The translations under genes were made by a program, and so were the position numbers. The notes under the pieces were generated by a model. The model was not told the origin of the DNA, made no database searches, and saw only the letters and a program-made list of their open reading frames with translations. From Candidatus Eiseniibacteriota bacterium (GTDB lineage Bacteria > Eisenbacteria > RBG-16-71-46 > CAZAMP01), in contig OZ245046.1 of NCBI GenBank assembly GCA_965224245.1, positions 1,792,001 to 1,856,000 on the forward strand: a DNA stretch of 64,000 nt, written 5' to 3'. Below are positions 1-29,870 of this stretch, in pieces. Numbering within the stretch: the stretch's first letter is position 1; the number at the start of each line of letters is the position of its first letter.

Positions 1-205
1 CCTGGTTACCGACGAGCCGCAGGTAGGCCTCGTGGACGAGCGCGGTCGGCTGGAGGGTGTGATCGGGTCGCTCGGCCGCCATCTCCTTCTGCGCCCGGGC
101 CCTCAGCTGGTCGTAGACGAGGGGCAGGAGCTCCTCGACGGCCGCGCCGTCTCCTCGGCTCGCCCGGCCGAGCAGGTGCGTGACCTGGCTGGCGGAATCC
201 GTCAT
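1..205 (-). CDS. ECF sigma factor, TIGR02999-like (N-terminal part; runs off window edge)
   Basis: Not in ORF track. Hand translation from ATG 205: MTDSASQVTHLLGRASRGDGAAVEELLPLVYDQLRARAQKEMAAERPDHTLQPTALVHEAYLRL; LLPLVY and HTLQPTALVHEAYLRL are family signatures. Confidence 0.9.
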   Translation of the reverse strand, partial: MTDSASQVTHLLGRASRGDGAAVEELLPLVYDQLRARAQKEMAAERPDHTLQPTALVHEAYLRLVGNQ

Positions 206-313
206 CTTGCCCCTCGGGAGTGGACCCGACGCTCGAACGACATTTGAGAGATGAGGGGTAATCTACCATCGGTCAAGGGTTTCCACCACCGGTCTCCGCT
301 CCGGGTCGGGCGA

Positions 314-739
314 CTACTCGGCGGGAGCGTCGTCCGAGACCCTCTCCTGCCGTCCCGGGTGCGCGTAGAGCAGCGCACGGACGATGTCGCGGTGCGCCAC
401 GATTCCGACGATCTTCTCGCCGTCGAAGATCGGCAGGCGTCGCACGCGGGTGCGCTCCATGAGCTGCGCGCAGTGCTCGACCCGGAAGTCGGGACCGGCG
501 AGCACGAGCGGCTTCGTGGTGATCTCGGCCACGCGGACCTTCCGGGGATCGCGGCCGGTCTCCACCACCTTGTTCACGATGTCGCTGAGGGTCACGATGC
601 CCCACGTGTCGCTCGCGTCCCGCCGCTCCACCAGCACGCTCGACATCTCGTGCGTCCGCATGAGCTCGGTCGCCTCGAGCACCGTGAGATCGCCCCGCAC
701 CCACACGAGCTCGCGGGTCATGATGTCCTGCGCCGTCAT
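314..739 (-). CDS. CBS-pair protein
   Basis: C-terminal 141 aa of ORF 314..1951 (MTAQDIMTRELV...WGIVTLSDIV...VRRLPIFDGEKIVGIV); ATG overlaps the upstream stop (ATGA 736-739). Confidence 0.9.
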   Translation of the reverse strand: MTAQDIMTRELVWVRGDLTVLEATELMRTHEMSSVLVERRDASDTWGIVTLSDIVNKVVETGRDPRKVRVAEITTKPLVLAGPDFRVEHCAQLMERTRVRRLPIFDGEKIVGIVAHRDIVRALLYAHPGRQERVSDDAPAE

Positions 740-2850
740 CGCACGTCTCGCTTTCTCGCCTCGAGGATCTCGAGAGCACGTCTCGAGCTCTCCTCCGCGG
801 CGCGCAAGAGATCCTGGGCGTATCGGAAGTTGTGAATGGCCGCGGACGCGTCCGCGGTCACGAACGAGTAGTTCGACAGGGCCTCCTCGTACAGTCGCTC
901 GGCCGTGGTGTCGGCGGCGGCGCCCCCGCTCCGGAGACGCGCCTCGACGCGATCGATCTGAGTCCGGACGCGGCGGTCGAGCTCCTCGATCGCCGACACG
1001 AAGGCGCGCGTCTCCTCGTCCATGTCGGTCTCGTGGCACCTGATGCACGAGCGCTCGGCGGACGGCCCGGGGGTCGGGGGTGCGTCGTCGGGCTTCCGGC
1101 CGGCGACGTCGACCCCGTGACACGCCGTGCACTTCACCTGGAAGTACTGCATGAGCGCCGGGCGTCCCCGCACACCCGCACCGGCCTCGCCTGCATAGAG
1201 CCGCTTCTGCGGCTCGTGACTGTCCACGTGGCACGCCTCGCAGTCCGTGACCGGATCCTCCTCGCGGGAGCCCGGATGCTCGATCTCGGAGTGACAGTCG
1301 AAGCAGTCGACGAGCTCCTCCCGGACGTGCACGTGATGCATCTCGGGCGTCGCGAGCCACTCGACGTCGAGGTGGCACGCGTTGCAGCGCGACGGCTCGA
1401 CCTCGATGCGTCCCCGCGAGGCGTCGCCGTGGCACGAGTGGCACTCCGCGTCCGTGCGATACGGCGTGTGATCCAGGCGAACCACGGCCGCGCCGGCTCG
1501 TGCGTCGAAGTCGTGGCATCCGCGGCACGGCGTCACCCGCTCGCTCACCGACGCGAAGTGGCAGAGGTTGCACGTGGCGGCCTCGACGGAGAAGTGGACC
1601 TTCTGGCCCCGGTGATTGTGACAGCTCGTGCACGTGGGCATGCCGATCGGCGCGAGCTCGGCGAGATGCGCCGCGTGCGAGAACGCCACGTCCGGGGCCC
1701 CGTCGACCTCGAAGCGCGGCGCGCGCGCCTGGGAGGTGTGACATCCCGATCGGAGGCACGAGGAATCGGGCACCTTGGCCACCGGCTTCGGATCGTAGGT
1801 CTTCGTGGCGTACCGGACGACCATCGCGACGCCCGTGATCTTTCCCCTCACCGCCCCCCGCAGCCCGTAGCTCCAGTGACAGGTCGTACACCGGATTTCC
1901 CGGTGCGCCGAGGTCGTCCAGGTGGCGTGATAGGGCTGCATGTTGTGGCACGACGGGCAGAGGGACGGCGTCTCGGACACCGTGGCGGTGCCCAGCACGA
2001 GCGCCACGAAGACCCCCGCGGACACGAGCGCGGCGCGCAGCACGTACGCGCGGTGAGACCAGATGCCGCGCAGAAAGAGCGATCGATTCGCCCGGCGCAG
2101 GCGCCGGCTGAGGAGTCGGGACATGCTCTCGAACACGACCGCTCCCAGGTGCTCGCGCCGGAGGGCCAGCTGGGTGAAGCGCTCACCGTCGATGACGATC
2201 ACCGTCGACGGCCGCGCGGTGCGGACGGTCGCCGAGCGCGTTCCCCCGAAGAGCTCGACCTCACCGACGATCTCACCCTCGCGGATGCGCGCGATCCGGC
2301 CGGCGCGCTTGGTGGAGACGACGAGCTCACCGGATTCGAGGAGGAACAGGCTGCGGTCCTCCTCGCCTTCCCGGATCAAAACCGTGTCCTTCGGGCAGCG
2401 CCGGAGTGACGCCAGGTTCAGGAGCGCGGCGAGGTCGTCGGCGGCGAGCCGGGAGAAGAACGGCACCCGCCTGAGAAGCGTGAAGAGCGAGAGAACGTCG
2501 TGGTAGCTGAGGATGCCCGCGGGGCGGGAGCCTTCCAGAACGAGGAGATGACGGACCCCGAAGCGCCGCATCAGCCGGCTGGCGTGACCGACGTTCAGCG
2601 AGGGGTCCACGAGGAGAAAGGCGGGTCGCATGACCGAGTCGATGCGAACCTCCGACGGGTCCAGCCCGCGCGCGGCCACCTTGGACACGATGTCGCGGTG
2701 GGTGACGATGCCCCAGGGCACGTCCTCGCGGGACGGTCGGACGATGACGCTCGAGATCCTCCGCTCGGCGAGGAGCCGGACCGCCTCGAAGAGACGCGCG
2801 TCGCCCGGCAGCACCGCCACGTCCCGGGTCATGAGGTCCAGGACCCTCAT
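736..2850 (-). CDS. Fusion of CBS pair, cNMP-binding domain, TM helix and NapC/NirT-like multiheme cytochrome c (11 CxxCH plus one CX4CH)
   Basis: CBS motifs at N-terminus; cNMP cassette GEIVGEVELFGGTRSATVRT; hydrophobic helix AALVSAGVFVALVLG; CPSCH, CTTCH, CLRSGCH, CTSCH, CNLCH, CRGCH, CHSCH, CNACH, CFDCH, CEACH, CTACH, CIRCH. Confidence 0.88.
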   Translation of the reverse strand: MRVLDLMTRDVAVLPGDARLFEAVRLLAERRISSVIVRPSREDVPWGIVTHRDIVSKVAARGLDPSEVRIDSVMRPAFLLVDPSLNVGHASRLMRRFGVRHLLVLEGSRPAGILSYHDVLSLFTLLRRVPFFSRLAADDLAALLNLASLRRCPKDTVLIREGEEDRSLFLLESGELVVSTKRAGRIARIREGEIVGEVELFGGTRSATVRTARPSTVIVIDGERFTQLALRREHLGAVVFESMSRLLSRRLRRANRSLFLRGIWSHRAYVLRAALVSAGVFVALVLGTATVSETPSLCPSCHNMQPYHATWTTSAHREIRCTTCHWSYGLRGAVRGKITGVAMVVRYATKTYDPKPVAKVPDSSCLRSGCHTSQARAPRFEVDGAPDVAFSHAAHLAELAPIGMPTCTSCHNHRGQKVHFSVEAATCNLCHFASVSERVTPCRGCHDFDARAGAAVVRLDHTPYRTDAECHSCHGDASRGRIEVEPSRCNACHLDVEWLATPEMHHVHVREELVDCFDCHSEIEHPGSREEDPVTDCEACHVDSHEPQKRLYAGEAGAGVRGRPALMQYFQVKCTACHGVDVAGRKPDDAPPTPGPSAERSCIRCHETDMDEETRAFVSAIEELDRRVRTQIDRVEARLRSGGAAADTTAERLYEEALSNYSFVTADASAAIHNFRYAQDLLRAAEESSRRALEILEARKRDVR

Positions 2851-2869
2851 GACGTCGTGCCGGAGGACC

Positions 2870-4117
2870 TCATGGCGACTCGCCCGGATGCTGGAGGTGC
2901 GCGAGGAGGTCCCGCAGATCGTCGCCCGTCAGCTCCGGCCAGGGATGGCCCTCGCTGAGGACGGCCTCCTTCATCACCGGCGCGTGGTTCCACATGGCCG
3001 AGACGAGGGCCGCCGGCGAGCCGATCACCTCGGCGGCGGTCAGCTCCGGTCCGGGATGCGGAACCTCTCCACCGCCGGAGTGACACTCCGCGCACGAGCG
3101 CTCGGAGAACGTCTCCGCGCCTCGACCGGCGTTTCCGGGGGCGTCGGTGAAGGGGCCGAAGTAGAGGTACGAGATGAGATCGGCCAGCTCCTGGGTCGTG
3201 AAGTGCGGCCAGGGGATGTTGCGCTCCGCGAACGCATCACGCATGACCTCGGCATGGTTCCACATCGTCCCGGCGATCGCCTCCGCCGAGCGGGGCAGCT
3301 CCCGGTCCAGGAGGTCCGGACCGAGCCCCGCATCGCCGGAGTCGGTGCGATGGCAGGTCGCGCATCCCTTCTCCTCGAACCGCCGGCGGCCGAGCTCCGG
3401 GTTTCCGGGGGCCAGGAGCGGGGTCCCGCCCGGGACCGCGGTGCCGATTCCCCGGATGTAGGCGCTGAGGTTCGCGAGGTCACCCGGCTCGAACGTGGGC
3501 GGGCGAACGCCGTGCTCGCGCATGGACTCGAACATCGCGGGGCCGTGGTTCCAGATCGCACGTGCGACGTGGAGGGGCGAGGCGAATCCGGTCAGCGCGC
3601 CGAGATCGGGTCCGATCGCGTCCCCTCGGTCCCCCACGCGGTGGCAACTCACGCATCCCCGCGCGCGAAAGACCTCACGACCGGCGTCCGTGGTGCCCGG
3701 GTCTCCGAGGTAGTCGATGTAGAAGAGAAACGCGACGAGGCGCAGCGTCTCGTCGGGAGTCAGCGTGGGCCACGCGAGCTCCATCTCCTCGAACGCGACG
3801 CTCATGCCGGGAACGTGGTTCCAGAGCGCGGCGCCGAGGTCCAGGAAGCTCCCGGAGAAGTGACCCCCGCCCAGCGCGGGCCCGATGTCGGGACCGCTTC
3901 CCGCGATCCCGTGACACCGGTTGCACCCCTTCTCCTCGAAGAGGAATCGCCCATCGATGGGGTTCTCGGGAAGGGACATCGTGTCGCTCGCGATCGCCGG
4001 GGTCACGAGGACGAGCGCGAGGACCGGGACGAGCAGCGTGCGCGCCTTCGGGAGGATCGCGCCGGCTGCTCCCGGCGTCGGGCGCCCCGTGTCGGGCGCG
4101 TTCCACGCGATGCTCAC
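2870..4117 (-). CDS. Exported tetraheme cytochrome c built from four tandem monoheme repeats
   Basis: Signal peptide LLVPVLALVLVTPAIA; CNRCH, CVSCH, CATCH, CAECH, each followed by a WNH...M segment. GTG start at 4117 overlaps the upstream stop (start inferred). Confidence 0.85.
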   Translation of the reverse strand: MSIAWNAPDTGRPTPGAAGAILPKARTLLVPVLALVLVTPAIASDTMSLPENPIDGRFLFEEKGCNRCHGIAGSGPDIGPALGGGHFSGSFLDLGAALWNHVPGMSVAFEEMELAWPTLTPDETLRLVAFLFYIDYLGDPGTTDAGREVFRARGCVSCHRVGDRGDAIGPDLGALTGFASPLHVARAIWNHGPAMFESMREHGVRPPTFEPGDLANLSAYIRGIGTAVPGGTPLLAPGNPELGRRRFEEKGCATCHRTDSGDAGLGPDLLDRELPRSAEAIAGTMWNHAEVMRDAFAERNIPWPHFTTQELADLISYLYFGPFTDAPGNAGRGAETFSERSCAECHSGGGEVPHPGPELTAAEVIGSPAALVSAMWNHAPVMKEAVLSEGHPWPELTGDDLRDLLAHLQHPGESP

Positions 4118-4386
4118 CGCTCCTCCTCCCGGCCGTCCTCCTCGGGCGGCCGGCGTCCCCGGCGCAGCCCCACGAACACGTACGTCAGGACGCTCGCGCC
4201 GGTCAGGTACACGGGAATCGCCACGATCGAGATGCCGATCGATGCGGACGGAACGTCGTGGAGCTGGCGCGAGAGGCGGATGAGGTGAAGGATCCAGGCG
4301 CTGATTCCGAGCACGAAGACCCAGATCATGGCCATGGAGATCACCTGCAGGACGAAGAGCGTACGCTCTTGCTTCGTGCCGCGCAT
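4114..4386 (-). CDS. Small two-TM membrane protein (probable complex subunit)
   Basis: MRGTKQERTLFVLQVISMAMIWVFVLG...; two hydrophobic segments; overlaps or abuts both neighbours (alternative GTG at 4392). Confidence 0.75.
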   Translation of the reverse strand: MRGTKQERTLFVLQVISMAMIWVFVLGISAWILHLIRLSRQLHDVPSASIGISIVAIPVYLTGASVLTYVFVGLRRGRRPPEEDGREEER

Positions 4387-4388
4387 CG

Positions 4389-5780
4389 TCACCTCCCCCC
4401 CGTCGCCGGCTCGCGTCGGCCCGTGGCATCGGCCGTCAGCTCCGGCAGGTAGCTGCGCACGCGCGCGGTCGTCTCGGCGACCGACTTCTCCCGGCCCTCC
4501 CGGCTCTCCCAGATGGAGATCAGGGGAAAGAACCGGCCGAAGACGACGAACCCGATGGCCAGCGACGCCAGCCCTCCGACGAACATCCCCCACTCGACGA
4601 GGCTGGGGACGTAGAACCCGCTGGGATACGGAAGCCTCGGGTTGGCCAGGGACGGCACCACGATGTTGAGCCGCTCGAGCCACATCCCGATCATCACCGC
4701 GATCGAGGCCACGAAGATCCCCGGGATGCGACGCGTTCGACGAAAGCTCAGGATGAGAACGGGGATGACGAAGTTGCACGCCACCATCCCCCAGAAGAAC
4801 GGCGCGTAGGTGCCCTCGAACTTGTAGAGGAAGACGCGCATCTCCGTCGGCTCGTGGCCGAAGAAGGCCGTGAGGTACTCCGAGAACGTGAAGTAGAACC
4901 AGAGCAGCGACATGATCAGCAGCAGCTTCGAGAGATGGCTGAAGTGAATGGTCTTGAGGTAGCGCTCGAGATGGAAGATGCGTCGGAGCACGATCATCAT
5001 CACCAGGAGCGCCGCGATGCCGGAGAAGATGGCCCCCACGACGAAGTACGGGCCGAAGATCGTGGAGTGCCAGCCCGGCTGCAGCGTCATCGCGAAGATG
5101 TACGAGATGACGGTGTGGACCGAGACGGCGATCGGGATCACGAGCACCATGAGGATGCTCATCGCGCGCTCCAGGACCGCTTCCTGACGCGCGGTACCCT
5201 GCCAGCCCCAGGACAGAAACGCGTAGAGCCAGCGCGGGCTGACGTTACGATCCCGGAGCAGCGCGATGTCCGGAATCATCGGGATGTACAGATACACGGT
5301 CGAGGCCATGAAGTACGCGGAGATCGAGGACACGTCCCAGAGAAGGGGTGATTGAAGCCTTCCCGCGCTGAAGATGTTGAGCATGCGATCGGGTCGGCCC
5401 AGGTCGAGCACCGGGTGGACGGCGCCGATCGCCAGCACGACGACCGTGATGACCTCCGCCATCCGCGTGATGGGCCGTCGCCACTCCGCCTGCGAGAGCC
5501 GCAGGACGGCCGAGATCAGCGTCCCGGCGTGACTGATGCCGATGAAGAACACGAAGTTGACGATGTAGAAGCCCCACCCTACCGGCTGGTTCAGCCCGGT
5601 GACCCCGAGCCCTCGGAGAATCTGCCGGCTGAACAGAACCCAGCAGCCGAGGATGAGCAGCGCGAGCAGCGTGAACGTCACGCGGAAGCGCGCGCCCGCG
5701 TGCTCGACCGAGCGCAGGAGATCCACGTCCTCGCACGCGCCCGGCTCGTCGTCCCGTCTGTCCGCGACCGCGTCCGTCAT
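4389..5780 (-). CDS. nrfD: NrfD/PsrC-family quinone-interacting membrane subunit (ActC-like)
   Basis: WGFYIVNFVFFIGISHAG, DLGRPDR, SPLLWD, WHSTIFGPYFVVGAIFSG; about 10 TM segments. ATG 5780 follows a purine-rich RBS (ORF track starts at 5804). Confidence 0.92.
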   Translation of the reverse strand: MTDAVADRRDDEPGACEDVDLLRSVEHAGARFRVTFTLLALLILGCWVLFSRQILRGLGVTGLNQPVGWGFYIVNFVFFIGISHAGTLISAVLRLSQAEWRRPITRMAEVITVVVLAIGAVHPVLDLGRPDRMLNIFSAGRLQSPLLWDVSSISAYFMASTVYLYIPMIPDIALLRDRNVSPRWLYAFLSWGWQGTARQEAVLERAMSILMVLVIPIAVSVHTVISYIFAMTLQPGWHSTIFGPYFVVGAIFSGIAALLVMMIVLRRIFHLERYLKTIHFSHLSKLLLIMSLLWFYFTFSEYLTAFFGHEPTEMRVFLYKFEGTYAPFFWGMVACNFVIPVLILSFRRTRRIPGIFVASIAVMIGMWLERLNIVVPSLANPRLPYPSGFYVPSLVEWGMFVGGLASLAIGFVVFGRFFPLISIWESREGREKSVAETTARVRSYLPELTADATGRREPATGGR

Positions 5781-5808
5781 CGTTCGCCTCTCTCCCTCGT
5801 TCACGCCG

Positions 5809-6495
5809 TCACTCGGTCTCCGAGAGATAGATCACCTTGGGCCGGGTTCCGAGGTCCGCGTGCAGGCGGAACGCCCGGGAGCTCCGGGCCAGGTCGCTCA
5901 CCCGGCTGGCCGGATCGTCGAGGTCCCCGAACTCGATCGCCCGGGCCGGGCAGCTCTCCGCACAGGCGGGGACCACGTCGCCGTCCCGTAGCTCGCGCTC
6001 CTCGACACGCGCCTGCTCCTTCGCCTGGTTGATCCGGTGGTGACAGAACGTGCACTTCTCCACGACGCCCTTGTAGCGACGCGACACGTCGGGGTTCGCC
6101 TTCCGAGCGAGATCACCGGGCCACTCGGGCTCGTACCAGTTGAAGACCTTGGCGTTGTACGGACACGCGGCCATGCAGTACCGGCAGCCGATGCACCGGG
6201 CGTAGATCTGCCCGACGATCCCCTCGTCACCGAGATACGTCGCGTGCACCGGACACACCCGCACACAGGGCGGGTCGTCGCACTGGAAGCACGGCTGCGG
6301 CATGTACGTGACCTTGGTCTCCGCATGGCTTTCCGAGACCTCGCTGATGACCCGCATCCAGTGGAAAGCACGGCTCCTCTCCACCGCCTCCTCCTTTCCG
6401 GAAGCGGCCAGGTTGTTCTCTTGATGGCAGGCGGCCATGCAGGCCCCGCATCCCGTGCAGCGGTCGAGATCGATGACCATGCCCCATCGTGCCAT
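5809..6495 (-). CDS. NrfC/QrcC-like iron-sulfur subunit
   Basis: WGMVIDLDRCTGCGACMAAC, CFQCDDPPCVRVCP, CIGCRYCMAACP, KCTFC...PACAESCP. Confidence 0.93.
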   Translation of the reverse strand: MARWGMVIDLDRCTGCGACMAACHQENNLAASGKEEAVERSRAFHWMRVISEVSESHAETKVTYMPQPCFQCDDPPCVRVCPVHATYLGDEGIVGQIYARCIGCRYCMAACPYNAKVFNWYEPEWPGDLARKANPDVSRRYKGVVEKCTFCHHRINQAKEQARVEERELRDGDVVPACAESCPARAIEFGDLDDPASRVSDLARSSRAFRLHADLGTRPKVIYLSETE

Positions 6496-8948
6496 CAGGT
6501 GTGCCCTCCCTCGTGCGGAGGCGGCCCGCCATGCCGGCGGCGCCGCGTCACGTGAAGCGTCACCGGGGTGGGGCCGGCCGCGAGCGTGCCGTCCAGCGCG
6601 TCGGGGGCCGTGGAGACGATCTCCAGCGGGTTGCTCCCCGCACCGCCCACGCGTTCGTTCAGCGTGTCATGACCCAGCCCGATCGGAACGTGGGCGACCC
6701 CGGGCATCCCACCCCGCTGCACGCGCACCTCCGCCTCGATCGTGCCCCGATCGGAGCGAATGGCCACGCGGTCGCCGTGCTCGACGCCCAGCTCGTGCGC
6801 CGTGGACGGCGCGAGCTCGACCCAGGTGGTCCAGCCCGAGAAGACGGTGTGCCCGAACATCTCGAGCAGCATCGGCGAGACGACCCCCAGATCTCCTCGC
6901 GACGTGATCGGTCGGAAGCAGACCATCGTCAGCTCCGCCGCCTCGTCCGGCTCCGTGGGCTCGTGATGGGGCAGGCAGCTCTCGTCGCTCCCGGTCTCGA
7001 CGCCGCTCGCGCGCTCGTGCTCGAGCAGACGCTGGGAGAAGAACTCGAAGCGACCGGATGCGGTGGCGAACACCCGGCTCCAGTCCGCCTCGGCCCGCAC
7101 CGGCGACCACCAGCCCGCATCGCGCACCATGTCCTCCCAGAGCTCGTCGACGCTCGTGTGGGTCATGAATCGCCACCCGCGCTCCTCCAGGAAGTGGACC
7201 CACGACTCCTCGAACGATCCGCGCGCGATCGCCCCCTGCCCCGACGTCACGAGCCCGGAGAGCCGGTGCTCCAGGTAGGTGTCGTATCGCTCCCAGGGGA
7301 GATGCGAGGCGACCGGCTCACCCAGGCGGGCCGCCAGGCTCAGCAACGTGTCGCCCGCGGTCCGGGTGTCGAACAGCGGCTCCACCACGGGATGACCGAG
7401 ACCGACGCTGTTGAACCCCACCGTCGGAGGCGTGGTGCTCTCGCGCCACGACTCCAGGAACATGGGTGTGGGCAGGATCAGCTGGGCGAGCGAGGAGGTC
7501 TCGTCCAGCACGGAGGTCATCGCGACCACCAGAGGAATCCGGCTCAGTGCCTCGCGCAGCCGATCCCCGGCCGGGCTCGAATGCACCGGGTTGGCGCCGA
7601 CGATGAGCAGAACGTCCAGCGGATGCGAGCCCGAGAGCACGCCGTCGGCCAGCGCCTCCACGGGGTCCGCTCCGAACCGGTGCGACCCGGGGCGCGGCGC
7701 GAAGAGCGACGAGGAGCGATCCAGCGATGGATCCGCGACGGGATCCAGCGGAAGGAACGGGACCCGTGCCGGCAACAGCACCCCCCCCGGTCGCTGAAAG
7801 GCCCCCATGAGCGCGTTGAGAGCGTGTACGCAGACCGCGGTCGCGGTCGCGTTGGAGCCCGCGAGCGCCTCGCCGCCGCTCAGCGCGAGCGGCGCCGATC
7901 CGCGCGCGAAGCGACGCGCGAGATGGATGATGGCGGCCGCCTCGCAGCCGCAAATCGCGGCCACGCGATCGGGGTAGTAGCGCTCCAGGAGGAGGCGACG
8001 AAACCCCATGTGGGGGCGACCCTGATCGTCCGTCCAGTCCTCGAATCCGAAGGTGTGCTCGGCGACGAAGCGGCGATCGTGCCGGCCCTCGCGGACGATC
8101 ACGTGGGCGATGCCCAGGGCCAGGGCGCCGTGCGTGCCGGGTCGGACCGGGAGGTACTGCCTCGCCTTCGCCGCCGAGGGGGAGAGTCGCGTGCCCACGT
8201 GAAGCAGCGTGCAGCGCTCTCCGGATGCCCGCGAGCCCACCAGCGCCGAGATCGCGTGCACCGGTGCCGGACCGTCCTCGTACAGGTCGAGCCCGAACGA
8301 GAGCACGACGTCCGCACGTGCCAGGTCGAAGGCCGGAATCTCGTCCAGGCCCTGCGTGAGCCGGAAGGGCAGCGCGCGATCGACCGAGGGGCGCGAGACG
8401 TTCGGCGACCCGATCGACTCGCCGAAGCGAACGGCCAGCTCGTGGAAGAGCGATCCCGTCTCGCCCGAGAGGATGGCCATGCGTGATCCGTCTCCCGCGG
8501 TCCTGAGCGCGTCCAGGCGCGAGGCGATCCGGTCCAGCGCCTCTTCCCACGTCGTGGGCCGCCGCTCGCCGCTCGCCTCGAGGACGAGCGGTCCCCGGAT
8601 GCGCTCGGGCGCGTAGAGAAGCTCCAGCGCGGAGCACCCGACCGGACACAGCCCGCCCCGGTTCAGGGGATGATCCGGACTGCCCTTGACCCCCACCGGC
8701 AGTCCGTCCACCAGACGCACTCGCAGCCCGCAGCCGCTCTCGCAGAGGCCGCAGATCGTGCTGGCGCCGCTCTCGATGCCGGGTCCGCGGAGGGCGAGCT
8801 CGACGAGATGCTCCGGCACCGACCACTCCCGATCGCAGCCGAGCAGCGTGGCGCCACTCGAGACGCCCAGGAGGCGGAGGAAGTCGCGCCGCGGCAAGCG
8901 CCTCACGTCGTTCCCCTCGATCGCGGTCCACGCTCTCTCCGTCGTCAC
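6495..8948 (-). CDS. Tat-exported molybdopterin-oxidoreductase-family subunit (QrcB/ActB1-like)
   Basis: RRDFLRLLG twin-arginine motif; CGLCESGC...GSPDHPLNRGGLC Fe-S motif; C-terminal dinucleotide-binding-type domain. Confidence 0.9.
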   Translation of the reverse strand: MTTERAWTAIEGNDVRRLPRRDFLRLLGVSSGATLLGCDREWSVPEHLVELALRGPGIESGASTICGLCESGCGLRVRLVDGLPVGVKGSPDHPLNRGGLCPVGCSALELLYAPERIRGPLVLEASGERRPTTWEEALDRIASRLDALRTAGDGSRMAILSGETGSLFHELAVRFGESIGSPNVSRPSVDRALPFRLTQGLDEIPAFDLARADVVLSFGLDLYEDGPAPVHAISALVGSRASGERCTLLHVGTRLSPSAAKARQYLPVRPGTHGALALGIAHVIVREGRHDRRFVAEHTFGFEDWTDDQGRPHMGFRRLLLERYYPDRVAAICGCEAAAIIHLARRFARGSAPLALSGGEALAGSNATATAVCVHALNALMGAFQRPGGVLLPARVPFLPLDPVADPSLDRSSSLFAPRPGSHRFGADPVEALADGVLSGSHPLDVLLIVGANPVHSSPAGDRLREALSRIPLVVAMTSVLDETSSLAQLILPTPMFLESWRESTTPPTVGFNSVGLGHPVVEPLFDTRTAGDTLLSLAARLGEPVASHLPWERYDTYLEHRLSGLVTSGQGAIARGSFEESWVHFLEERGWRFMTHTSVDELWEDMVRDAGWWSPVRAEADWSRVFATASGRFEFFSQRLLEHERASGVETGSDESCLPHHEPTEPDEAAELTMVCFRPITSRGDLGVVSPMLLEMFGHTVFSGWTTWVELAPSTAHELGVEHGDRVAIRSDRGTIEAEVRVQRGGMPGVAHVPIGLGHDTLNERVGGAGSNPLEIVSTAPDALDGTLAAGPTPVTLHVTRRRRHGGPPPHEGGHT

Positions 8949-8972
8949 CTGCCTACCTCCCGTTCGCGACGC

Positions 8973-9509
8973 TCACCGGTGACAGGACACACAGTCGTTC
9001 GAGGCGGCTCGTTCCTGGTGGCACTGCATGCAGTCGTCCATGCGCATGCGCACGAGGGGTCGCGTGAGCGGCACCTCGCGCTCCTCGATCGGTCCGTGAC
9101 AGCGCCCGCACTCGATCCCGCCCACCGCCGTGTGCCGGCGATGCGAGAAGTACACGTGCTCGGGCACGACGTTGACCTTTCTCCACGGGATCGGGACCCC
9201 GTCGCGTATGTACTCCACGGTGCGCGCCTCCTCGGCCGACTCCGTCATCGCCTCCTCGTGGCAGTCGACGCAGACCTCGATGTTGGGGATCGTCGCGCGT
9301 ACGCCCTTCCGCGCGTACACGTGACAGTCCGTGCACTCCAGGCCCGCGTCCTCGACGTGGAGGTGATGGTTGAACGCGATCGGCTGGGTGATCGCCGCAC
9401 CGAGCGCGGCCGGTGCCGCCAGCAGGAGGACGATCCAGCGAGCGTTCCGCAGCCGGTCGCCTCCTCGCCGGCCGCGGCGCCGGCGGCCGTCGGTGGCTGT
9501 GCGCGTCAT
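8973..9509 (-). CDS. Membrane-anchored pentaheme cytochrome c (ActA/QrcA-like)
   Basis: QPIAFNHHLH, CTDCH, CVDCH, VYFSHRRH, CGRCH, CMQCH, CVSCHR; ATG 9509 overlaps the upstream stop. Confidence 0.9.
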   Translation of the reverse strand: MTRTATDGRRRRGRRGGDRLRNARWIVLLLAAPAALGAAITQPIAFNHHLHVEDAGLECTDCHVYARKGVRATIPNIEVCVDCHEEAMTESAEEARTVEYIRDGVPIPWRKVNVVPEHVYFSHRRHTAVGGIECGRCHGPIEEREVPLTRPLVRMRMDDCMQCHQERAASNDCVSCHR

Positions 9510-10729
9510 CGCACCGTCTCCGTGGCCCGTGACAGCTCGATGTCCAGGTGCTGCGTCTCCATGATGACCGGCCGGTAGCGATACGAGAGCTCGGCGCTGA
9601 TGTTCACGGGGCGCCGCTGTCGGACGTAGAACCGGAAGCGCTCGACTTGCTCCCCTCTCGGCGCGACCCGGTTGTCGCTCACCACCTTCGCGCCGTAGAG
9701 GATGGCCTCCCAGTCGGTGTCGATGATGTTGCCGTCCGCGTCGGCGATCACCTTCCGGTAGCGCCGCTCCTGCTCGGTGGTCAGGCCGTCGACCTCCGCG
9801 GTGACGGTGAGCACGACCTCCCGGCTCGGCATTCCGGTCGGCACCTTGTGTCCGGAGCCAACGTTGGCGACTCGCACCCGGACGTCGACGTCGTCTCCGG
9901 TCCGCGTCGCGCCGATGATCTCCACCGACATGGCGTCGCGGAGCTGGTTGCTGTCGTGGATCAGGTCGTGAAGGTGCATGTCCGCCTGCGAGGCCTTGAC
10001 CTCCTCGCTCACCACCCGTCCCTCGCCCAGGACCATGTGACAGGTCTGACAGGGCTTGCCCTCCTCGGCGTAGGGTCCTTCCCGCCACTCGTCGTAGGTG
10101 CTCATGATCGCGGCCCCACCGGGCGCCACGTAGTTGTGGCAGCCGGCACAGAACTCGGCGGTGCCGTGGAGCTCGGAGAACGCCACGTCGTGCGCCGGCG
10201 ATGCCGCCTTCCTCAGGATGCTCCGCTTGATGGGGCCCACGTCGAAGAGATAGGGCACGTCGGCTCCGGCGGGAGCGAGCCCGGACACGGTGTGGCAGAA
10301 GTCACAGCTCACGCCCTCGCGCGTCACGCCCTGCACCAGCTCGTAGTCTCGGTTCGTCATCGTCATCGGCGCGTGGCAGCGGAGACACAGGCTCTTTGCG
10401 TCGTCGCCCGCCTCCTTCAGCGCCATCATGTACGCCGCGTCGAAGATGGGATCGGTCAGCGAGAACGCGTGGAGGCTTCTCTTCCACGATTCGTAGATGT
10501 CGGTGTGGCAGCGACCGCAGACCTGCGCGCTCGTGTAGCCATCCTCGTTGATGGAAACCGACCCGGCGTGTGGCTCGCTCCCGGTCGATGCCGCACGGCC
10601 GACGGCTGCCGGCCCGGCCATCGTCGCCGCGACGGCGAGCGCCGCCGCCAGGATCGGGATCGGTCTCGCGTATCGCCGGGTGCCCACCCGGGCGGTCGTG
10701 GGGAAGCGGGATGGCGCGGCGACGTGCAT
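9506..10729 (-). CDS. Exported pentaheme cytochrome c (c554-like) with C-terminal beta domain
   Basis: Signal peptide; CGRCH, CLRCH, EGVSCDFCH, CAGCH, CQTCH; GHKVPTG. Confidence 0.85.
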   Translation of the reverse strand: MHVAAPSRFPTTARVGTRRYARPIPILAAALAVAATMAGPAAVGRAASTGSEPHAGSVSINEDGYTSAQVCGRCHTDIYESWKRSLHAFSLTDPIFDAAYMMALKEAGDDAKSLCLRCHAPMTMTNRDYELVQGVTREGVSCDFCHTVSGLAPAGADVPYLFDVGPIKRSILRKAASPAHDVAFSELHGTAEFCAGCHNYVAPGGAAIMSTYDEWREGPYAEEGKPCQTCHMVLGEGRVVSEEVKASQADMHLHDLIHDSNQLRDAMSVEIIGATRTGDDVDVRVRVANVGSGHKVPTGMPSREVVLTVTAEVDGLTTEQERRYRKVIADADGNIIDTDWEAILYGAKVVSDNRVAPRGEQVERFRFYVRQRRPVNISAELSYRYRPVIMETQHLDIELSRATETVR

Positions 10730-10783
10730 CGGGGACCCCCCGTCGAAAGAGCCGAGCGACTCCGGACTTCACGACATGAGCCG

Positions 10784-10799
10784 AGCAAGGAGCGTACCG
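10784..10799 (-). promoter_or_regulatory. Sigma54 -24/-12 promoter of the respiratory operon
   Basis: Minus strand CGGTACGCTCCTTGCT (GG-N10-GC, close to TGGCACG-N4-TTGCW), 55 bp upstream of ATG 10729 and next to a sigma54 activator gene. Confidence 0.8.
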
Positions 10800-10872
10800 C
10801 TGGCGCGATCACGCTAACTGGCTGCGGGAGAAGTCTTTCCAGACGAAGGTGAATCAGTGCGAATCGGCACGA

Positions 10873-10887
10873 CTGACAGATTGTCAG
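10873..10887. promoter_or_regulatory. Palindromic upstream activator site (putative bEBP enhancer)
   Basis: Perfect inverted repeat CTGACA-gat-TGTCAG about 75-90 bp upstream of the -24 element. Confidence 0.6.
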
Positions 10888-10951
10888 GCCGGAGCGTGCG
10901 ACCCGGTCTGGCGCAGGGACTTGGCGCGTGCCACGCCGCGCGGAGCGGGTG

Positions 10952-12316
10952 TCAGTTCTGGCGCGAGTCCTCGACGTCACCCGATCGGAGCTTGCGATAG
11001 AGCGTCCGCTCGCTGATGCCGAGCGCCGCCGCCGCGCGGGCGCGGTTCCCATCGAAGCGCTGGAGCAGGTCGTGGATGTACCGTCGCTCGACCTCCTGCA
11101 GCGACAGCGGCGGCTCGTCGGCGTCGCCTGCCCGGTCCTCCGAGGTTGCCGCGAGGTTCGTCGGCAGGTGGCGCCGGCTGATCGCTCCCCCCTCCGAGAG
11201 GATCAGCGCACGCTCGATCACGTTCCGGAGCTCGCGCGCGTTCCCCGGCCACGCGTATGCGCGCAGCATCTCCATCGCGCCGTCGTCCATGGGGGGCGGG
11301 TCGGACGGGCGAAGACGCGAGAGAAAGTGGAGGGCCAGCGGGCCGATGTCCTCGACGCGCTCCCGGAGGGGGGGCACGTCGATGCGAAAGACGTTCAGCC
11401 GGTAGTAGAGATCCTCGCGGAAGGTCCCCTCGCGAACGAGCGCCTCCAGGTCGCGATGCGTGGCGGCGAGCACGCGCACATCCACCCGGATCGACTCCTC
11501 ACCCCCGAGCCGCCGGAACGCGCCCGTCTCCAGCACGCGGAGAAGGCGGGTCTGGAGCGACATCGTCGCGTCCCCGATCTCGTCGATGAGGATGGTCCCC
11601 GAGTCGGCCAGCTCGAAGAGCCCGTGCTTGCGCGCGCTGGCGCCCGTGTAGGCGCCCCGCTCGTGCCCGAACAGCTCCGAGAGCGCGAGGTTCTCCTCGG
11701 TGGAGCCGCAGTCGAGCACCACGAGCGGCCGCTCGCGTCGGGGTCCCTGGCGATGGATGACGCGGGAGACGACCTCCTTGCCCGTGCCGCTCTCGCCGCG
11801 GATGAGCACGGTCGAGCTCGTGGGCGCGACCTTCTCGATCAGCGCCTTCAGGCGCCGCACGGAGTCCGAGCGGCCGATCAGCTCGGGGCTCTCGGAGCGG
11901 CGGTGGAGCGAGTGGCGAAGCGCCGCGTTCTCCGAGCGCATGGCGCGCTTCTCCGCCGCGCGCCGGATGGTCGACTCCAGATGATCCAGATCACACGGCT
12001 TGGTGAGAAAGTCGTACGCGCCCAGCTTGAGGGCCTGGACCGCCGACTCCACCGACCCGTGGCCCGTGAGGATGATGACCTCGGTGAGCTCCCGGACCTT
12101 CTTGATTCGCTCCAGCGTGTCGATCCCGTTCATGTGCGCCATCCGCAGGTCCAGCACGACGACGTCGTAGGGGGTGTGAAGAAGGGCCTCCTCGACGTCC
12201 TCGCCGCGGCTCCTCGTCTCCACCTGGATGTTCGCCGCGTTCAGCTCCCGCGCCAGGACGGTTCGAAACGTATCGTCGTCGTCCACGATCAGCACCGAGG
12301 GATTCAGCGCGCTCAC
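10952..12316 (-). CDS. Sigma54-dependent response regulator (NtrC/AtoC/ZraR family)
   Basis: REC domain (VLIVDDD, DLRM, KP), GESGTGKE, SELFGHERGAYTGA, WPGNAREL, Fis-type HTH. Confidence 0.96.
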   Translation of the reverse strand: MSALNPSVLIVDDDDTFRTVLARELNAANIQVETRSRGEDVEEALLHTPYDVVVLDLRMAHMNGIDTLERIKKVRELTEVIILTGHGSVESAVQALKLGAYDFLTKPCDLDHLESTIRRAAEKRAMRSENAALRHSLHRRSESPELIGRSDSVRRLKALIEKVAPTSSTVLIRGESGTGKEVVSRVIHRQGPRRERPLVVLDCGSTEENLALSELFGHERGAYTGASARKHGLFELADSGTILIDEIGDATMSLQTRLLRVLETGAFRRLGGEESIRVDVRVLAATHRDLEALVREGTFREDLYYRLNVFRIDVPPLRERVEDIGPLALHFLSRLRPSDPPPMDDGAMEMLRAYAWPGNARELRNVIERALILSEGGAISRRHLPTNLAATSEDRAGDADEPPLSLQEVERRYIHDLLQRFDGNRARAAAALGISERTLYRKLRSGDVEDSRQN

Positions 12317-14190
12317 GACCGCACCTCCTCGGCGGCACGCGGCGCCGCCGGCAGGAGGATCGTGAACGCGGCTCCCTCCCCCGGAGCGCTCGAGACCCGT
12401 ATCGAGCCCCCGAGCCCGTCCACGATGATCTTCGAGATGAACAGCCCGAGCCCGGTGCCCTTCCCATCGGAGCGGGCGGAGTAGAACGGCTCAAAGACCT
12501 TCGAGAGCGCCGCCGGCTCGATGCCGCGACCGGTGTCCGTGACCTCCACCCGCACGAACGCGTCCTCGGTCGACTCGACGCGCACGACGAGCCGACCGGG
12601 ACCGTCCATCGACTGCACGGCGTTCAGGAGAACGTTCAGGACGACCTGCCGGATCTTCGCCTGATCCGCGAGGACGATGCACGCCTCGGTCGCCACGCGC
12701 TCGACGACGTCCACTCGCCCCTTTCGGCACTCGTAGCGCAACAGCGCGAGCGTGTCCCGAACGACGGCCCCGACGTCGACGGGCTCCCGGTGGGGTCGCG
12801 GGTTCCGCCCGAGCAGCTTGAGCCGCTCGGTCAGACGCTGGCACCGCCCGACCTCACCGCGGATGAGATCCAGGTACTCCGGAAGCTCGTCGGGGATCTG
12901 CCGGCTCTCGGCGTCGCGCAGCCGGCGTCGCAGACCGTCGAGGCACGTCGTGATGGAGGCCAGAGGGTTGTTGATCTCGTGCGAGATGCCCGAGGCCAGA
13001 AGCCCGAGCGACGCGAGGCGCTCCTGGCTGGCCAGGTGGGCCTCGATCTCCCTGCGCTGCGTGATGTCGCGCCAGATCTCGATGACCTGACGTCGCCCGG
13101 AGGCGGTGTTCAGCGGCGAGGCGGAGATCTCGAAGTGGCGGGGATCGTCTCCGTCTCCGCCGAGCGTGCGAACCCGGCGGGTGACCGCACCGGTGCTGAA
13201 GGTGCTGCGCGCGGGGCAGTCCGCGAGATCCTCGCCGCTGCACAGTCCCGCGCAGTCGCAGCGCCCCGCGAGCGGGGACTCGGTACCTCCCAGTCGTTCG
13301 AAGGCCTCGTTCGCCGTGACCACGTTGAGATCCTCGTCCACGACCACGATCCCGTCGGCCGCCGAGTGGATGACGGCATCCAGAAAGGCCTCCCGCTCCC
13401 TCAGGCGTCGAAGCGTGTGATCGAGACTTCGCGTCATCCGGTTGAGGTGGTCTCCGAGCCGATCGATCTCGTCGGCGCCGCGCACGCTGGCGGAGCGATC
13501 CAGGTCTCCGGCCTCGATCGAGTCCACCACCGTCACCAGAGACGCCAGACGACGCAGCACGAGGCGCCGCATCACGATCATGATCACCGCGATGATGGCC
13601 ACCGAGAGCGTGACCGCCGAGAGCCACATCTTGCGGGTGCTGGCGCTGAGGCTCGCGTCGATCCCCGCCATGGAGTAGTCGACGATCAACACACCGTTCA
13701 CCCGATCGTCCGGGGAGTGGCACTCGTGGCACGCGTCACTGTTGAGGATCGGGTTCACGTTGCGAAACACGCGGTGACCGTCATGGGTCTCGAACGTCAC
13801 CGTTCGCCCCCGAACCGAGGGACCGTGCCGGTGGCAGATCTTGCATGTCGGATCGGACAGCGAGAGCACCCGCCCCCGGTCGGCGGGGTCGGAGGAGAAC
13901 CGGATCACCCCCTTCTTGTTCAGGATCATGACGTTCTCGACGCTCTTCTGATCGGCGAGCCGGCGGACCATCTCCCCGAGATGATCCAGAGAGCGCGAGT
14001 GCATCGCGTGGCGAAGGCTCTGCTCGACGAGCTTGCCCTCGATGGCCGTGGATTCGGCGAGGGAGGCGATCATCTGGCGGCGGTAGTAGTCCTGGAGGAT
14101 CCAGAACGAACCTCCACCGATCACCAGCACGGTGAGCACCACGACCGCTGTGAGCCGGGAGCTCAGAGATCGGAGCGGCGGCCGGAGCAT
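12313..14190 (-). CDS. Membrane sensor histidine kinase with two periplasmic CxxCH motifs, HAMP, PAS-like and HisKA/HATPase domains
   Basis: Two TM helices flank CKICH and CHECH; SHEINNPL H-box; NAVQ, DTGRG and GTGLGL boxes. Confidence 0.93.
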   Translation of the reverse strand: MLRPPLRSLSSRLTAVVVLTVLVIGGGSFWILQDYYRRQMIASLAESTAIEGKLVEQSLRHAMHSRSLDHLGEMVRRLADQKSVENVMILNKKGVIRFSSDPADRGRVLSLSDPTCKICHRHGPSVRGRTVTFETHDGHRVFRNVNPILNSDACHECHSPDDRVNGVLIVDYSMAGIDASLSASTRKMWLSAVTLSVAIIAVIMIVMRRLVLRRLASLVTVVDSIEAGDLDRSASVRGADEIDRLGDHLNRMTRSLDHTLRRLREREAFLDAVIHSAADGIVVVDEDLNVVTANEAFERLGGTESPLAGRCDCAGLCSGEDLADCPARSTFSTGAVTRRVRTLGGDGDDPRHFEISASPLNTASGRRQVIEIWRDITQRREIEAHLASQERLASLGLLASGISHEINNPLASITTCLDGLRRRLRDAESRQIPDELPEYLDLIRGEVGRCQRLTERLKLLGRNPRPHREPVDVGAVVRDTLALLRYECRKGRVDVVERVATEACIVLADQAKIRQVVLNVLLNAVQSMDGPGRLVVRVESTEDAFVRVEVTDTGRGIEPAALSKVFEPFYSARSDGKGTGLGLFISKIIVDGLGGSIRVSSAPGEGAAFTILLPAAPRAAEEVRS

Positions 14191-14271
14191 GGCGAACCCC
14201 TCGACGTGGTCATGCGCCTCTGCTGCTCAAGGCTACCACGATCGCGCCCCGCGTACAGTCGGTGCTCCTGC

Positions 14272-16935: not shown

Positions 16936-17046
16936 GGCGCGCACGGTAGCACAACTCGTGGCGCTGCCACCTTCACAGGACGTCTCGTGTCCGTCGTCGG
17001 CTCACCCGGGGCGCCCGTGACATCCCCCTGGTCCTCCTCGCCGCGC

Positions 17047-19704: not shown

Positions 19705-19762
19705 CCCGGTCCCCCCGCTTCGGGAACGTACTCTGCGTGAGCCGGCGCCCGTCCTCCCGCGA

Positions 19763-19852
19763 CCGCTCGCGGCAGACCTCGCCCATGCCTCCGGCTCCGA
19801 GTTGCGAGACAATCTCGTAGGGGCCGAGGCGAGCTTCGAGGTCGAGAGCCAA
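19763..19852 (-). pseudogene. Decayed 5' stub of a Ser/Thr kinase gene
   Basis: LALDLEARLGPYEIVSQLGAGGMGEVCRER matches kinase subdomain I, after which similarity stops. Confidence 0.75.
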
Positions 19853-20019
19853 CGCGAAGGGGTCCTCTCGATTCACAGGCCGAGAGAGTATCAGGGCGTC
19901 GTGGTCCTCCACCAGGCTCCCGATGGAGAAGCCGGGAGTCGGGAGTGGCGTGACGCCCGCCAGGCGCTCTACAGTCTCATGTCACTCCGGCTCGACTCCA
20001 CGTGACGGAGGTCTGGGAC

Positions 20020-22560: not shown

Positions 22561-22584
22561 GATCCGCCGACGCAGCCGCCGTCC

Positions 22585-22680
22585 GGGACGATGCTCGGTC
22601 CGTGCGAGACCTCTCCCCCCTCGGCGCCGTGGGAATGGGCGAGGTCTGTCGCGCCCGCAACACGCGGCTCGGTCGCCGAG
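22585..22680 (+). pseudogene. Frameshifted 5' stub of a Ser/Thr kinase gene
   Basis: GTMLGPCE, then after a 1-nt shift LSPLGAVGMGEVCRARNTRLGR; truncated thereafter. Confidence 0.75.
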
Positions 22681-22901
22681 ACGCACCGGCCGGAATCGAG
22701 CCGCAAATCGCTGCCGTGCAGCGTCTTGTGGTCAACATCTCATACTGAATCGAGACAGAGCCCCGCACGGGGCACCGGCGAGCCGGTGGCCGTTTCGCGT
22801 CTCCCGACTTGCTCTTCATGGCGTCCTGTCACATCCTCTTCGACCTGGATTCGAACCCGACCCTTCGAACCCGACGACCACCCACATGGAGGAACGGACA
22901 C

Positions 22902-23540: not shown

Positions 23541-23564
23541 TGTCCCGCTAGCGCCTCCACCCCC

Positions 23565-23593
23565 GCGACCGGCCGGAGCCGCCGGCCGGTCGC
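23565..23593 (+). terminator. GC-rich hairpin, possible terminator
   Basis: GCGACCGGCCGG-agccg-CCGGCCGGTCGC, a perfect 12-bp stem 25 nt after the stop; no clear U-tract. Confidence 0.5.
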
Positions 23594-23649
23594 CGTTCGC
23601 TCGCCGTTCAGGGTTTGGTGAGCGCGCCCGCCGCCCGTAGACTGCGCGC

Positions 23650-25827: not shown

Positions 25828-25859
25828 TCCCGGCACGCCGCGGAGAGGAGCGACACCGG

Positions 25860-26876: not shown

Positions 26877-26909
26877 CGCGCGTGCCCCGGGCCGTCTCGC
26901 CGGGCGCGG

Positions 26910-29711: not shown

Positions 29712-29870
29712 GCGTTCTCTCGATCCGATCGGGAGTGGCCGTCGGCGACCGGGAAGAATCGGCCCCACACGTCTCGGCCCCGTCGTCGACGGGCCCGGTG
29801 CGTCATCCGACGTCGTCAGGCTCGGCCAGCATACTCGACGCGTCGCACATCTTCCATGGATCGCGTATCC

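Follow-up and report, generated by a model that had tools for sequence, protein, structure and literature searches.

A rare, conserved fusion of a nucleotide-sensing tandem to a twelve-haem periplasmic cytochrome suggests control of quinol-linked electron transfer from the cytoplasm

A single gene joins CBS and cyclic-nucleotide-binding domains to twelve c-type haem sites

We analyzed a stretch of 64,000 nucleotides from a Candidatus Eiseniibacteriota bacterium (assembly GCA_965224245.1, contig OZ245046.1, positions 1,792,001 to 1,856,000 of the forward strand), referred to here as the window, and focused on the fusion gene P0001 near its start. This gene joins a pair of CBS domains and a cyclic-nucleotide-binding (cNMP) domain to a multihaem cytochrome in one uninterrupted minus-strand frame of 704 amino acids plus a stop codon. 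The gene and its parts, from the N terminus to the C terminus, are listed below with window coordinates; pLDDT denotes the predicted local distance difference test score of the structural model.

736..2850, minus strand: fusion gene P0001 (CBS pair, cNMP domain, helix, transmembrane segment, twelve c-type haem sites, helix bundle)
2476..2850, minus strand: CBS pair (Bateman module), residues 1-125; two Pfam CBS matches, E 1.2e-19; model pLDDT >90
2155..2475, minus strand: cyclic-nucleotide-binding domain, residues 126-232; Pfam PF00027 at 150-229
2215..2274, minus strand: phosphate-binding cassette, residues 193-212, with Gly196, Glu197, Arg205, Ser206, Ala207 and Thr208 (GE...RSAT at 196-208)
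2053..2154, minus strand: linker helix, residues 233-266; Arg-rich, running from the C-helix of the cNMP domain toward the membrane
1975..2052, minus strand: single transmembrane anchor, residues 267-292; the only hydrophobic helix in a hydropathy scan, aligning with the NrfH membrane helix
1735..1974, minus strand: NrfH-like start, residues 293-372; haem 1 CxxCHxM, haem 2, Lys337 and haem 3 Cx4CH
1393..1734, minus strand: middle c7/c3-like haems 4-7, residues 373-486; Pfam Cytochrome_C7 at 438-493, E 1.5e-12
1024..1392, minus strand: OcwA/NrfA-like five-haem block, haems 8-12, residues 487-609; from the alignment with OcwA 6i5b
739..1023, minus strand: C-terminal three-helix bundle, residues 610-704, aligned to the OcwA bundle; helices 610-640, 648-665 and 672-703, pLDDT >90

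P0001 carries eleven CxxCH motifs (cysteine positions 298, 321, 407, 427, 442, 470, 489, 516, 537, 574 and 602), one Cx4CH motif (CLRSGCH at 365, Cys365-Cys370) and no CxxCK. An AlphaFold model of the protein reaches a mean pLDDT of 82, with values above 90 over residues 1-190. Every countable item agrees with the original prediction for this DNA, which had described a 704-residue frame with a CBS pair, a cNMP domain with its cassette, one transmembrane helix and eleven CxxCH motifs plus one CX4CH. The window has a guanine-plus-cytosine (GC) content of 70%, and the long overlapping frames in other strands and phases are the usual by-product of high GC. Within the fusion gene, third-position GC is 0.90, and codon-position GC is uniform and matches that of the neighboring genes.

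The fusion recurs in independent records

A word-indexed search of 5.8 billion protein clusters (90%-identity clustering), in which 8000 candidates were scored, returned 18 proteins at E ≤1e-3. Eight of these are full-length fusions of 638-715 amino acids with 90-100% coverage, namely the window protein P0001 and seven homologues, P0002-P0008, that share 52-56% identity with it; among the remaining ten, two cover the haem half only and eight the cNMP domain only. A profile search gave no new fused clusters, its 15 matches at E ≤1e-40 including the same eight proteins again, and phmmer, run exhaustively against 1.84 billion representatives, found one further, more distant fusion, P0019 (40% identity, 695 amino acids). 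Neither the twelve haem motifs nor the cassette G-E-x-E-L-F-G-G-x-R-S-A-T varies in the alignment of P0001-P0008. Identity to P0001 across the family is 56-67% for the cytoplasmic part, compared with 52-56% for the whole protein. The motif set lies far beyond chance, because each of the twelve haem motifs is retained by at least 151 of 152 aligned modules, described below, and the cassette is invariant in eight fused proteins.

These homologues bear on whether the gene could be an artefact, either of chimeric assembly or of a frameshift joining two genes. The original prediction had named confinement of the fusion to this assembly as a result that would speak against it. We found the same full-length architecture in eight other proteins, on separate contigs and in independent source records from ENA, NCBI and JGI. 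Moreover, conservation within the fused family is highest at the junction (residues 233-300, window 1950-2150), and the codon-position GC is uniform and typical of the neighbors. Because independent homologues share the architecture, we consider an artefact refuted and leave it next to no probability.

The fused family is rare. When 185,579 species-representative genomes were scanned with two peptide patterns common to all eight fusions, no fused relative was returned, nor was the window's own genome; the 76 pattern matches contained five relatives, all unfused and matching from residue 260 onward. Together, these results establish one real, conserved but rare gene that combines a nucleotide-sensing tandem, a single helix and a twelve-haem periplasmic cytochrome.

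The haem half is a widespread twelve-haem module with an NrfH-like start and an OcwA-like end

The haem half alone is far more common. A phmmer search found at least 221 cluster representatives of it at E ≤1e-30, and 147 of the best 150 align only to residues ~220-704. All twelve haem sites are kept in at least 151 of the 152 modules that we aligned. This half of the protein is a conserved, widespread and apparently unnamed twelve-haem module, which can be divided into three parts.

The first part aligns with Desulfovibrio vulgaris NrfH (2j7a, E 1.3e-4) over the membrane helix, the CxxCHxM motif, the SxH histidine and haem 2. Helix 267-292 directly precedes the first CxxCH at residue 298, and the CxxCHxM of P0001 aligns with C43-H47-M49 of NrfH. 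Lys337 lies 12 residues after the haem 2 histidine, the same spacing as that of NrfH Lys82, a correspondence extrapolated from an alignment that ends three residues earlier. In a report on this class of cytochromes, Met49 of the NrfH CXXCHXM motif is given as the proximal ligand of the quinol-site haem, and the conserved quinol-site lysine as NrfH Lys82 and CymA Lys91 (bioRxiv 10.1101/2022.01.10.475773). Among the 152 modules, Met304 is conserved in 143, Lys337 in 136 and the cysteines of Cx4CH in all.

The Pfam NapC/NirT family PF03264 (Cytochrom_NNT) matches P0001 at residues 272-353 with 22.6 bits, the cut-off being 24.1, and is above the cut-off in P0019 (29.4 bits) and, in precomputed annotation, in P0002, P0003, P0005, P0006 and P0008. 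The NrfH equivalog TIGR03153 gives P0001 37.7 bits against a cut-off of 134.2, and the fold match of the module to NrfH has a TM-score of 0.49 on the target. The earlier description of the cytochrome as NapC/NirT-type stands for its NrfH-type quinol-site signature; it is too simple for the module as a whole, which has twelve haems with an OcwA/NrfA-like end.

The middle haems 4-7 weakly match a Geobacter dodecahaem protein (3ov0/3ouq) and are the least confident part of both structural models. Beyond them, residues 487-692 align with Thermincola OcwA (6i5b, E 2.7e-12) over five haem sites, a methionine and the helix bundle, whose His673 is kept in 148 of the 152 modules. A second model, of residues 260-704 (pLDDT 75.6), gave OcwA as the top Foldseek match, with NrfH also found and then the NrfA, ONR and MccA families. 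No Foldseek match of the haem part reached E <1e-3, and the fold matches serve only to back up the sequence results. A search of the ESM Atlas gave no usable match.

Ten non-motif histidines and Met567 are conserved in at least 95% of the 152 modules. They would suffice as axial ligands for eleven haems, all except the NrfH-like haem 1, and this arrangement fits an electron-transfer chain. The module could alternatively be a self-contained quinol:substrate reductase whose substrate is hydroxylamine, a metal or an oxyanion of nitrogen or sulfur, and the sensor domains might still control it; this proposal overlaps with the cytoplasmically regulated cytochrome that we put forward below and departs from it solely in the role given to the haem end. 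It draws on the alignment with the NrfA-like part of OcwA, on the fold matches to the NrfA, ONR and MccA families, and on P0019, whose score for Pfam cytochrome c552 exceeds the cut-off (24.5 against 24.1 bits). OcwA is described as having an NrfA-like design, with His-Met ligation at haem 9 and a His-His pair above each of two open haems (PMC6703420). His545 of P0001 aligns with the first histidine of the pair over the open, five-coordinate OcwA haem 5, as that haem is described there, so the end of the module could be catalytic instead of a wire. However, P0001 has no CxxCK, none of the fold matches is strong, and the conserved ligand candidates are enough for every haem but the first. In addition, His505 and His508 are invariant in the family and have no histidine counterpart in the OcwA alignment, and these extra residues could close the haem in question. 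From these alignments we favor an electron-transfer chain with one NrfH-like open haem over a catalytic end, and judge a self-contained reductase rather unlikely.

The sensor half keeps the residues expected of nucleotide-binding domains

The closest solved relative of the CBS pair is the cyanobacterial CBS-CP12 protein (5nmu; E 4.6e-20, 37% identity, root-mean-square deviation 1.7 Å over 120 residues). The motif G-h-h-T/S-x-x-D, which we take to be the CBS ribose-phosphate signature, is kept in both CBS halves wherever the segment is present, in seven of the eight fused proteins for each half. Further Protein Data Bank matches to the CBS pair (9znf, 9zni and 9sr9) were set aside as irrelevant, being listed as archaeal ribosome hibernation factors.

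The cNMP domain of P0001 matches PF00027 with E 1.3e-16 (60.7 bits, cut-off 27.5). Its best solved relatives are the yeast PKA regulatory subunit (3of1, E 1.9e-11) and the CNB-A domain of PKG, and Foldseek additionally relates this part to CRP/GlxR, to the CNG/HCN/TAX-4 channels and to the CNBH domain of CNNM. All eight fused proteins P0001-P0008 share the cassette residues Gly, Glu, Arg, Ser, Ala and Thr, and Glu197, Arg205 and Thr208 align with their counterparts in PKA-R and PKG. The sensor motifs are intact, as had been predicted: the cassette aligns to those of PKA and PKG with a one-residue deletion, and the CBS signatures are kept in both halves.

In a search with residues 1-265, the CBS-cNMP tandem appeared only in the P0001 family (eight of 15 matches), and the other matches share the cNMP domain with unrelated enzymes. 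The sole non-family match with both domains was P0169, a cNMP-CBS-DUF294 nucleotidyltransferase in which 31% of the query was covered. A homodimer prediction with two copies of residues 1-266 scored 0.22 against a mark of 0.42, in a run that had no controls, and weighs neither way.

These conserved residues also bear on whether the tandem senses anything. The cytochrome might be constitutive, with ligand-free CBS- and cNMP-like domains that serve dimerization, assembly or localization, as in CNNM, to which the fold match points. The cNMP-like domain of CNNM is not known to bind cyclic nucleotides, so that such a tandem can be a scaffold. The cassette of P0001 is, in the alignment, one residue shorter than those of PKA and PKG, and in P0019, the fused relative furthest from P0001, Asn replaces the phosphate-binding Arg and a single CBS signature is recognizable. 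Against a purely structural role, the six cassette residues are invariant in eight of eight proteins and the CBS ribose motifs are kept despite an overall identity of ~55%, and the best sequence relatives of the cNMP domain, PKA-R and PKG, are true binders of cyclic AMP (cAMP) or cyclic GMP (cGMP). We consider a structural tandem improbable.

A highly conserved helix connects the sensor to the membrane anchor

In the model, helices 233-265 and 267-292 run from the cNMP domain into the membrane with a sole break at residue 266. The linker (residues 233-266) is the most conserved segment of the fused family, with a mean pairwise identity of 78% compared with 49-69% for the other segments, as would be expected for a signal-transmitting element.

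The stretch before the transmembrane helix is Arg-rich and the stretch after it is not, and reading of the sequence revealed no signal peptide. Attachment of c-type haem takes place in the periplasm. Because the Arg-rich flank lies before the helix, the haem motifs lie after it and a signal peptide is absent, the CBS and cNMP domains are predicted to be cytoplasmic and the haems periplasmic. The single helix and its flanks thus support the topology proposed in the original prediction.

The fusion gene lies in a probable operon with a Qrc-like set of genes

The fusion gene is the last but one of a series of minus-strand genes, which are listed here in the order of transcription with the two regulatory genes that precede them. 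For the Qrc-like genes, NCBIfam scores are followed by the equivalog cut-offs; all fall below these and denote best matches only.

12313-14190, minus strand: HAMP-PAS histidine kinase (Pfam)
10952-12316, minus strand: sigma-54-dependent response regulator (Pfam), directly upstream of the cytochrome operon
9506-10729, minus strand: c554-like pentahaem cytochrome (Pfam, haem count)
8973-9509, minus strand: QrcA/ActA-like pentahaem cytochrome; its start overlaps the previous stop (ATGA, 9506-9509); QrcA 115.5 vs 180
6495-8948, minus strand: molybdopterin-like, QrcB-like subunit with a twin-arginine translocation (Tat) signal; keeps the Cx2Cx3C iron-sulfur motif; QrcB 296.8 vs 440
5809-6495, minus strand: QrcC-like iron-sulfur subunit; QrcC 299.9 vs 400
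4389-5804, minus strand: NrfD/QrcD-like subunit; best NCBIfam match DsrP, then QrcD 36.4 vs 570
2870-~4429, minus strand: four-domain class I cytochrome c (Pfam)
314..739, minus strand: stand-alone CBS-pair gene, 141 amino acids; two Pfam CBS matches, E 4.9e-24

The run from 314 to 10729 is a probable operon, and its genes encode 26 c-type haem sites and two different quinone-interacting modules, one NrfD-type and one NrfH-type. The fusion gene is separated from the four-domain cytochrome c gene by a gap of 19 bases. On its other side, the fusion-gene stop is overlapped by the ATG of the CBS-pair gene (ATGA). The encoded CBS-pair protein shares 36% identity with the fused CBS pair and may be a stoichiometric partner or a competitor of the sensor module.

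The 220-base gap after the response regulator gene holds a -24/-12-like site (10785-10799, minus strand) that is a weak candidate, scored with what we take to be the sigma-54 consensus; the scan gave 25 matches, compared with 38.6 expected by chance. A terminator and sigma-70 scan of window positions 1-3000 and an Rfam scan of positions 1-15000 found none.

Relatives carry other cytoplasmic domains on the same haem module

Variants of the module were surveyed with Pfam on 26 N-terminally extended relatives, with a motif and hydropathy table of 167 proteins, and by reading four sequences. They include stand-alone forms of ~440-500 amino acids, C-terminally extended forms with 14-30 CxxCH motifs, and forms with N-terminal polytopic membrane regions of roughly 4-27 predicted helices that have no Pfam match even at E up to 5. 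The shorter of these, with 4-10 helices, may be truncated gene calls.

Three relatives carry, or appear to carry, a different regulatory domain. P0059 consists of the module and a canonical receiver domain that keeps its acceptor Asp, and P0159 has a receiver-like N terminus lacking the acceptor Asp, as read from the sequence (Pfam reports none). P0161 carries only a cNMP domain, whose cassette is degenerate, and its first haem CxxCH is lost. No kinase, cyclase or DNA-binding output domain was found by Pfam in the 26 extended relatives scanned.

The FastTree tree was built from 152 modules after removal of 15 of the 167 proteins, seven of them fragments and eight with a cNMP domain alone. In this tree the nine CBS-cNMP proteins are united in a single clade (support 100), with the membrane-domain forms as the nearest group, and the receiver forms and P0161 fall elsewhere. 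An IQ-TREE analysis of 54 of the 152 rows recovered the same CBS-cNMP clade. These placements suggest separate origins for the types of sensor fusion. The approximately unbiased (AU) test nevertheless keeps a single clade of all 12 sensor-fused rows (p 0.136), and since this clade is not rejected we make no claim of three independent origins. The receiver and cNMP domains have unrelated folds, which means that two or more different acquisitions, or a swap, took place.

Two further observations concern the unfused and the membrane-domain relatives. At a locus of a Phycisphaerae metagenome-assembled genome (L001, 8170-11353, plus strand), an unfused 461-residue homologue of the module directly follows a receiver gene and a histidine-kinase gene, an arrangement that is the split counterpart of the receiver-fused form. 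An unassigned 392-residue open reading frame (11350-12528) and then another multihaem cytochrome lie downstream. Separately, twelve relatives of ~1320-1440 amino acids (P0029, P0061, P0066, P0079, P0101, P0103, P0104, P0108, P0129, P0147, P0162 and P0167) carry the module behind a region of ~900 residues with roughly 20-27 predicted helices, again with no Pfam match at E up to 5.

Comparison with known systems

P0001 resembles the NrfH, CymA, NapC and TorC cytochromes in its N-terminal helix followed by the haem 1 CxxCHxM, in the SxH histidine, haem 2 and the lysine spacing, and in its fold match to NrfH. It differs from them in having twelve haems instead of four or five, a third site of the form Cx4CH and a cytoplasmic sensor region of 266 residues before the helix. 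NapC/NirT quinol dehydrogenases are proteins of about 150-400 residues with four (or five) haems, and P0001 falls outside this description. At its other end, P0001 aligns with OcwA, of the OcwA/NrfA/ONR/MccA group, over its five final haem sites, the conserved Met and the three helices of the C-terminal bundle. OcwA is a soluble nine-haem reductase of the cell surface, with two open haems, whereas P0001 is membrane-anchored, starts like NrfH and has extra histidines.

For the regulatory part, the closest working analogies appear to be the CBS-regulated CNNM/CorB transporters and the channels gated by cyclic nucleotides. CNNM/CorB are likewise membrane proteins with a cytosolic CBS pair followed by a cNMP-type domain, and Foldseek aligns 304-307 columns to the cytosolic domains of human CNNM3 (6mn6) and CNNM2 (6n7e). 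In contrast, P0001 has no DUF21 match in Pfam, its sensor is N-terminal to a single helix and the part under control would be a cytochrome; the cassette residues, which are presumably missing in CNNM, are intact in P0001. The channels (MloK1, SthK, HCN and CNG) couple a cNMP domain through a helical linker to a transmembrane effector. In P0001 the corresponding effector is a haem protein anchored by a single helix, with no pore, and the sensor is N-terminal with a CBS pair before it.

CBS-CP12, which has the closest solved CBS pair, is soluble, is fused to a CP12 peptide and lacks any membrane or haem part. Proteins with cNMP, CBS and DUF294 domains show that the pairing of both sensor domains is common in bacteria; unlike P0001, they have a nucleotidyltransferase output and no membrane or haem part. 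QrcABCD and alternative complex III (ACIII) resemble the neighboring genes and not P0001, and the operon adds the c554-like pentahaem cytochrome, the four-domain cytochrome c and the fusion protein.

A quinol-linked cytochrome that may be regulated by cytoplasmic nucleotides

We propose that P0001 is a quinol-linked twelve-haem cytochrome under the control of adenine and cyclic nucleotides in the cytoplasm, a reading to which we assign a probability of roughly 55%. What the analysis shows is the domains and motifs, the signals of topology, a conserved fusion, its operon setting and the parallel fusions of relatives; the ligands, the direction of signaling and the gating of electron flow are inferred. 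P0001 would be a type II membrane protein in which the cytoplasmic CBS pair, as a sensor of adenosyl nucleotides, and the cNMP domain form the input and the periplasmic cytochrome is the regulated effector. We assign the roles in this way because every cytoplasmic domain found on this module is of the input type. The conserved helix would relay ligand occupancy to the membrane anchor, whose counterpart in NrfH borders the quinol-site haem 1. The outcome could be a changed turnover of quinol and quinone or a changed oligomeric or partner state, and the protein might in this way throttle one branch of the periplasmic electron network of the Qrc/ACIII-like operon. The translationally coupled CBS-pair protein would be a candidate partner of the sensor module.

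Several of the results weigh against this proposal. On the cytochrome side, these are the PF03264 and TIGR03153 scores below their cut-offs and the alignment of His545 with a distal histidine over the OcwA haem 5 that is described as open. On the sensor side, the cassette is shortened and P0019 lacks the cassette Arg and has only one CBS, so that binding of cyclic nucleotides may not be general across the fused family; the CNNM precedent for a scaffold belongs here too. In addition, there was no adenylate or guanylate cyclase among the 45 scanned reading frames of the window, and the AU test retains a single sensor-fused clade.

The signal might instead travel inward, with the redox state of the periplasmic haems or quinone altering the nucleotide affinity or partner binding of the cytoplasmic domains and the signal passing to the CBS-pair protein or to the kinase and sigma-54 regulator. 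A rigid, highly conserved helix could carry a signal either way, a separate CBS-pair gene is translationally coupled to the fusion gene, and a two-component system lies upstream. Precedents for an outside-in sensor are the c-type haem sensor domains found in chemoreceptors and the feedback that the TorS kinase receives from TorC, a cytochrome of the NapC/NirT type. However, CBS, cNMP and receiver domains are input modules with no output of their own, and none of the 26 extended relatives carries an output domain. Twelve haems and a conserved quinol-site signature also far exceed what a sensor needs, and the phospho-acceptor Asp kept in P0059 implies receiving rather than sending. Because relatives are fused to a receiver domain, we prefer control of the cytochrome from the cytoplasm and regard inward redox signaling as unlikely.

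Novelty and possible significance

The original prediction knew of no characterized protein with this architecture, and our literature search, which covered open-access papers and bioRxiv, agrees: it returned no paper in which a multihaem or NapC/NirT cytochrome carries a fused CBS, cNMP or receiver domain. A survey of Desulfuromonadia cytochromes (PMC11492766) contains, in a term search of its text, no family matching the module and no mention of CBS, cyclic nucleotides or receiver domains. Each part of P0001 comes from a family already known, and transporters and channels provide precedents for the regulatory logic; the protein is not categorically new.

More tentatively, P0001 could belong to an unrecognized class of ligand-gated respiratory cytochromes, in which the same module has come under cytoplasmic control more than once, through CBS and cNMP domains, through a cNMP domain alone and through receiver phosphorylation, with the CBS-pair protein as a stoichiometric co-regulator. 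To our knowledge, nearly all that is known about the control of cytochromes in bacterial respiration and extracellular electron transfer concerns transcription and maturation. A quinol dehydrogenase equipped with sensors of energy charge and second messengers would be a direct post-translational valve on electron flow, and could let bacteria open or close a path from quinone to periplasm within seconds and independently of transcription. It would couple the redox state of the quinone pool with cAMP or cGMP and with the adenylate status of the cell, and could offer bioelectrochemical engineering a natural ligand-switchable haem conduit. The small, well-defined family and the soluble sensor part make direct allosteric control of a respiratory cytochrome a testable proposition.

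Other genes of the window

Several genes elsewhere in the window are also of note. An LPS (lipopolysaccharide) heptosyltransferase gene suggests a diderm host. Four large Ser/Thr protein kinases (852-952 amino acids) with PD40 beta-propeller or TPR tails lie within 16 kb (14272-29768). The plus-strand gene at 23650-25827 encodes an unusual 725-residue fusion of a sodium:dicarboxylate symporter domain and a family 3 solute-binding domain. At 35004-36814, a gene for an Ion_trans_2 channel of the two-transmembrane type (141 amino acids) adjoins one for a multihaem c7/c3-like cytochrome (451 amino acids, minus strand). Finally, the minus-strand gene at 43271-44350 encodes an M50 site-2-type membrane protease with a C-terminal CBS pair, a second CBS-regulated membrane protein in the window.

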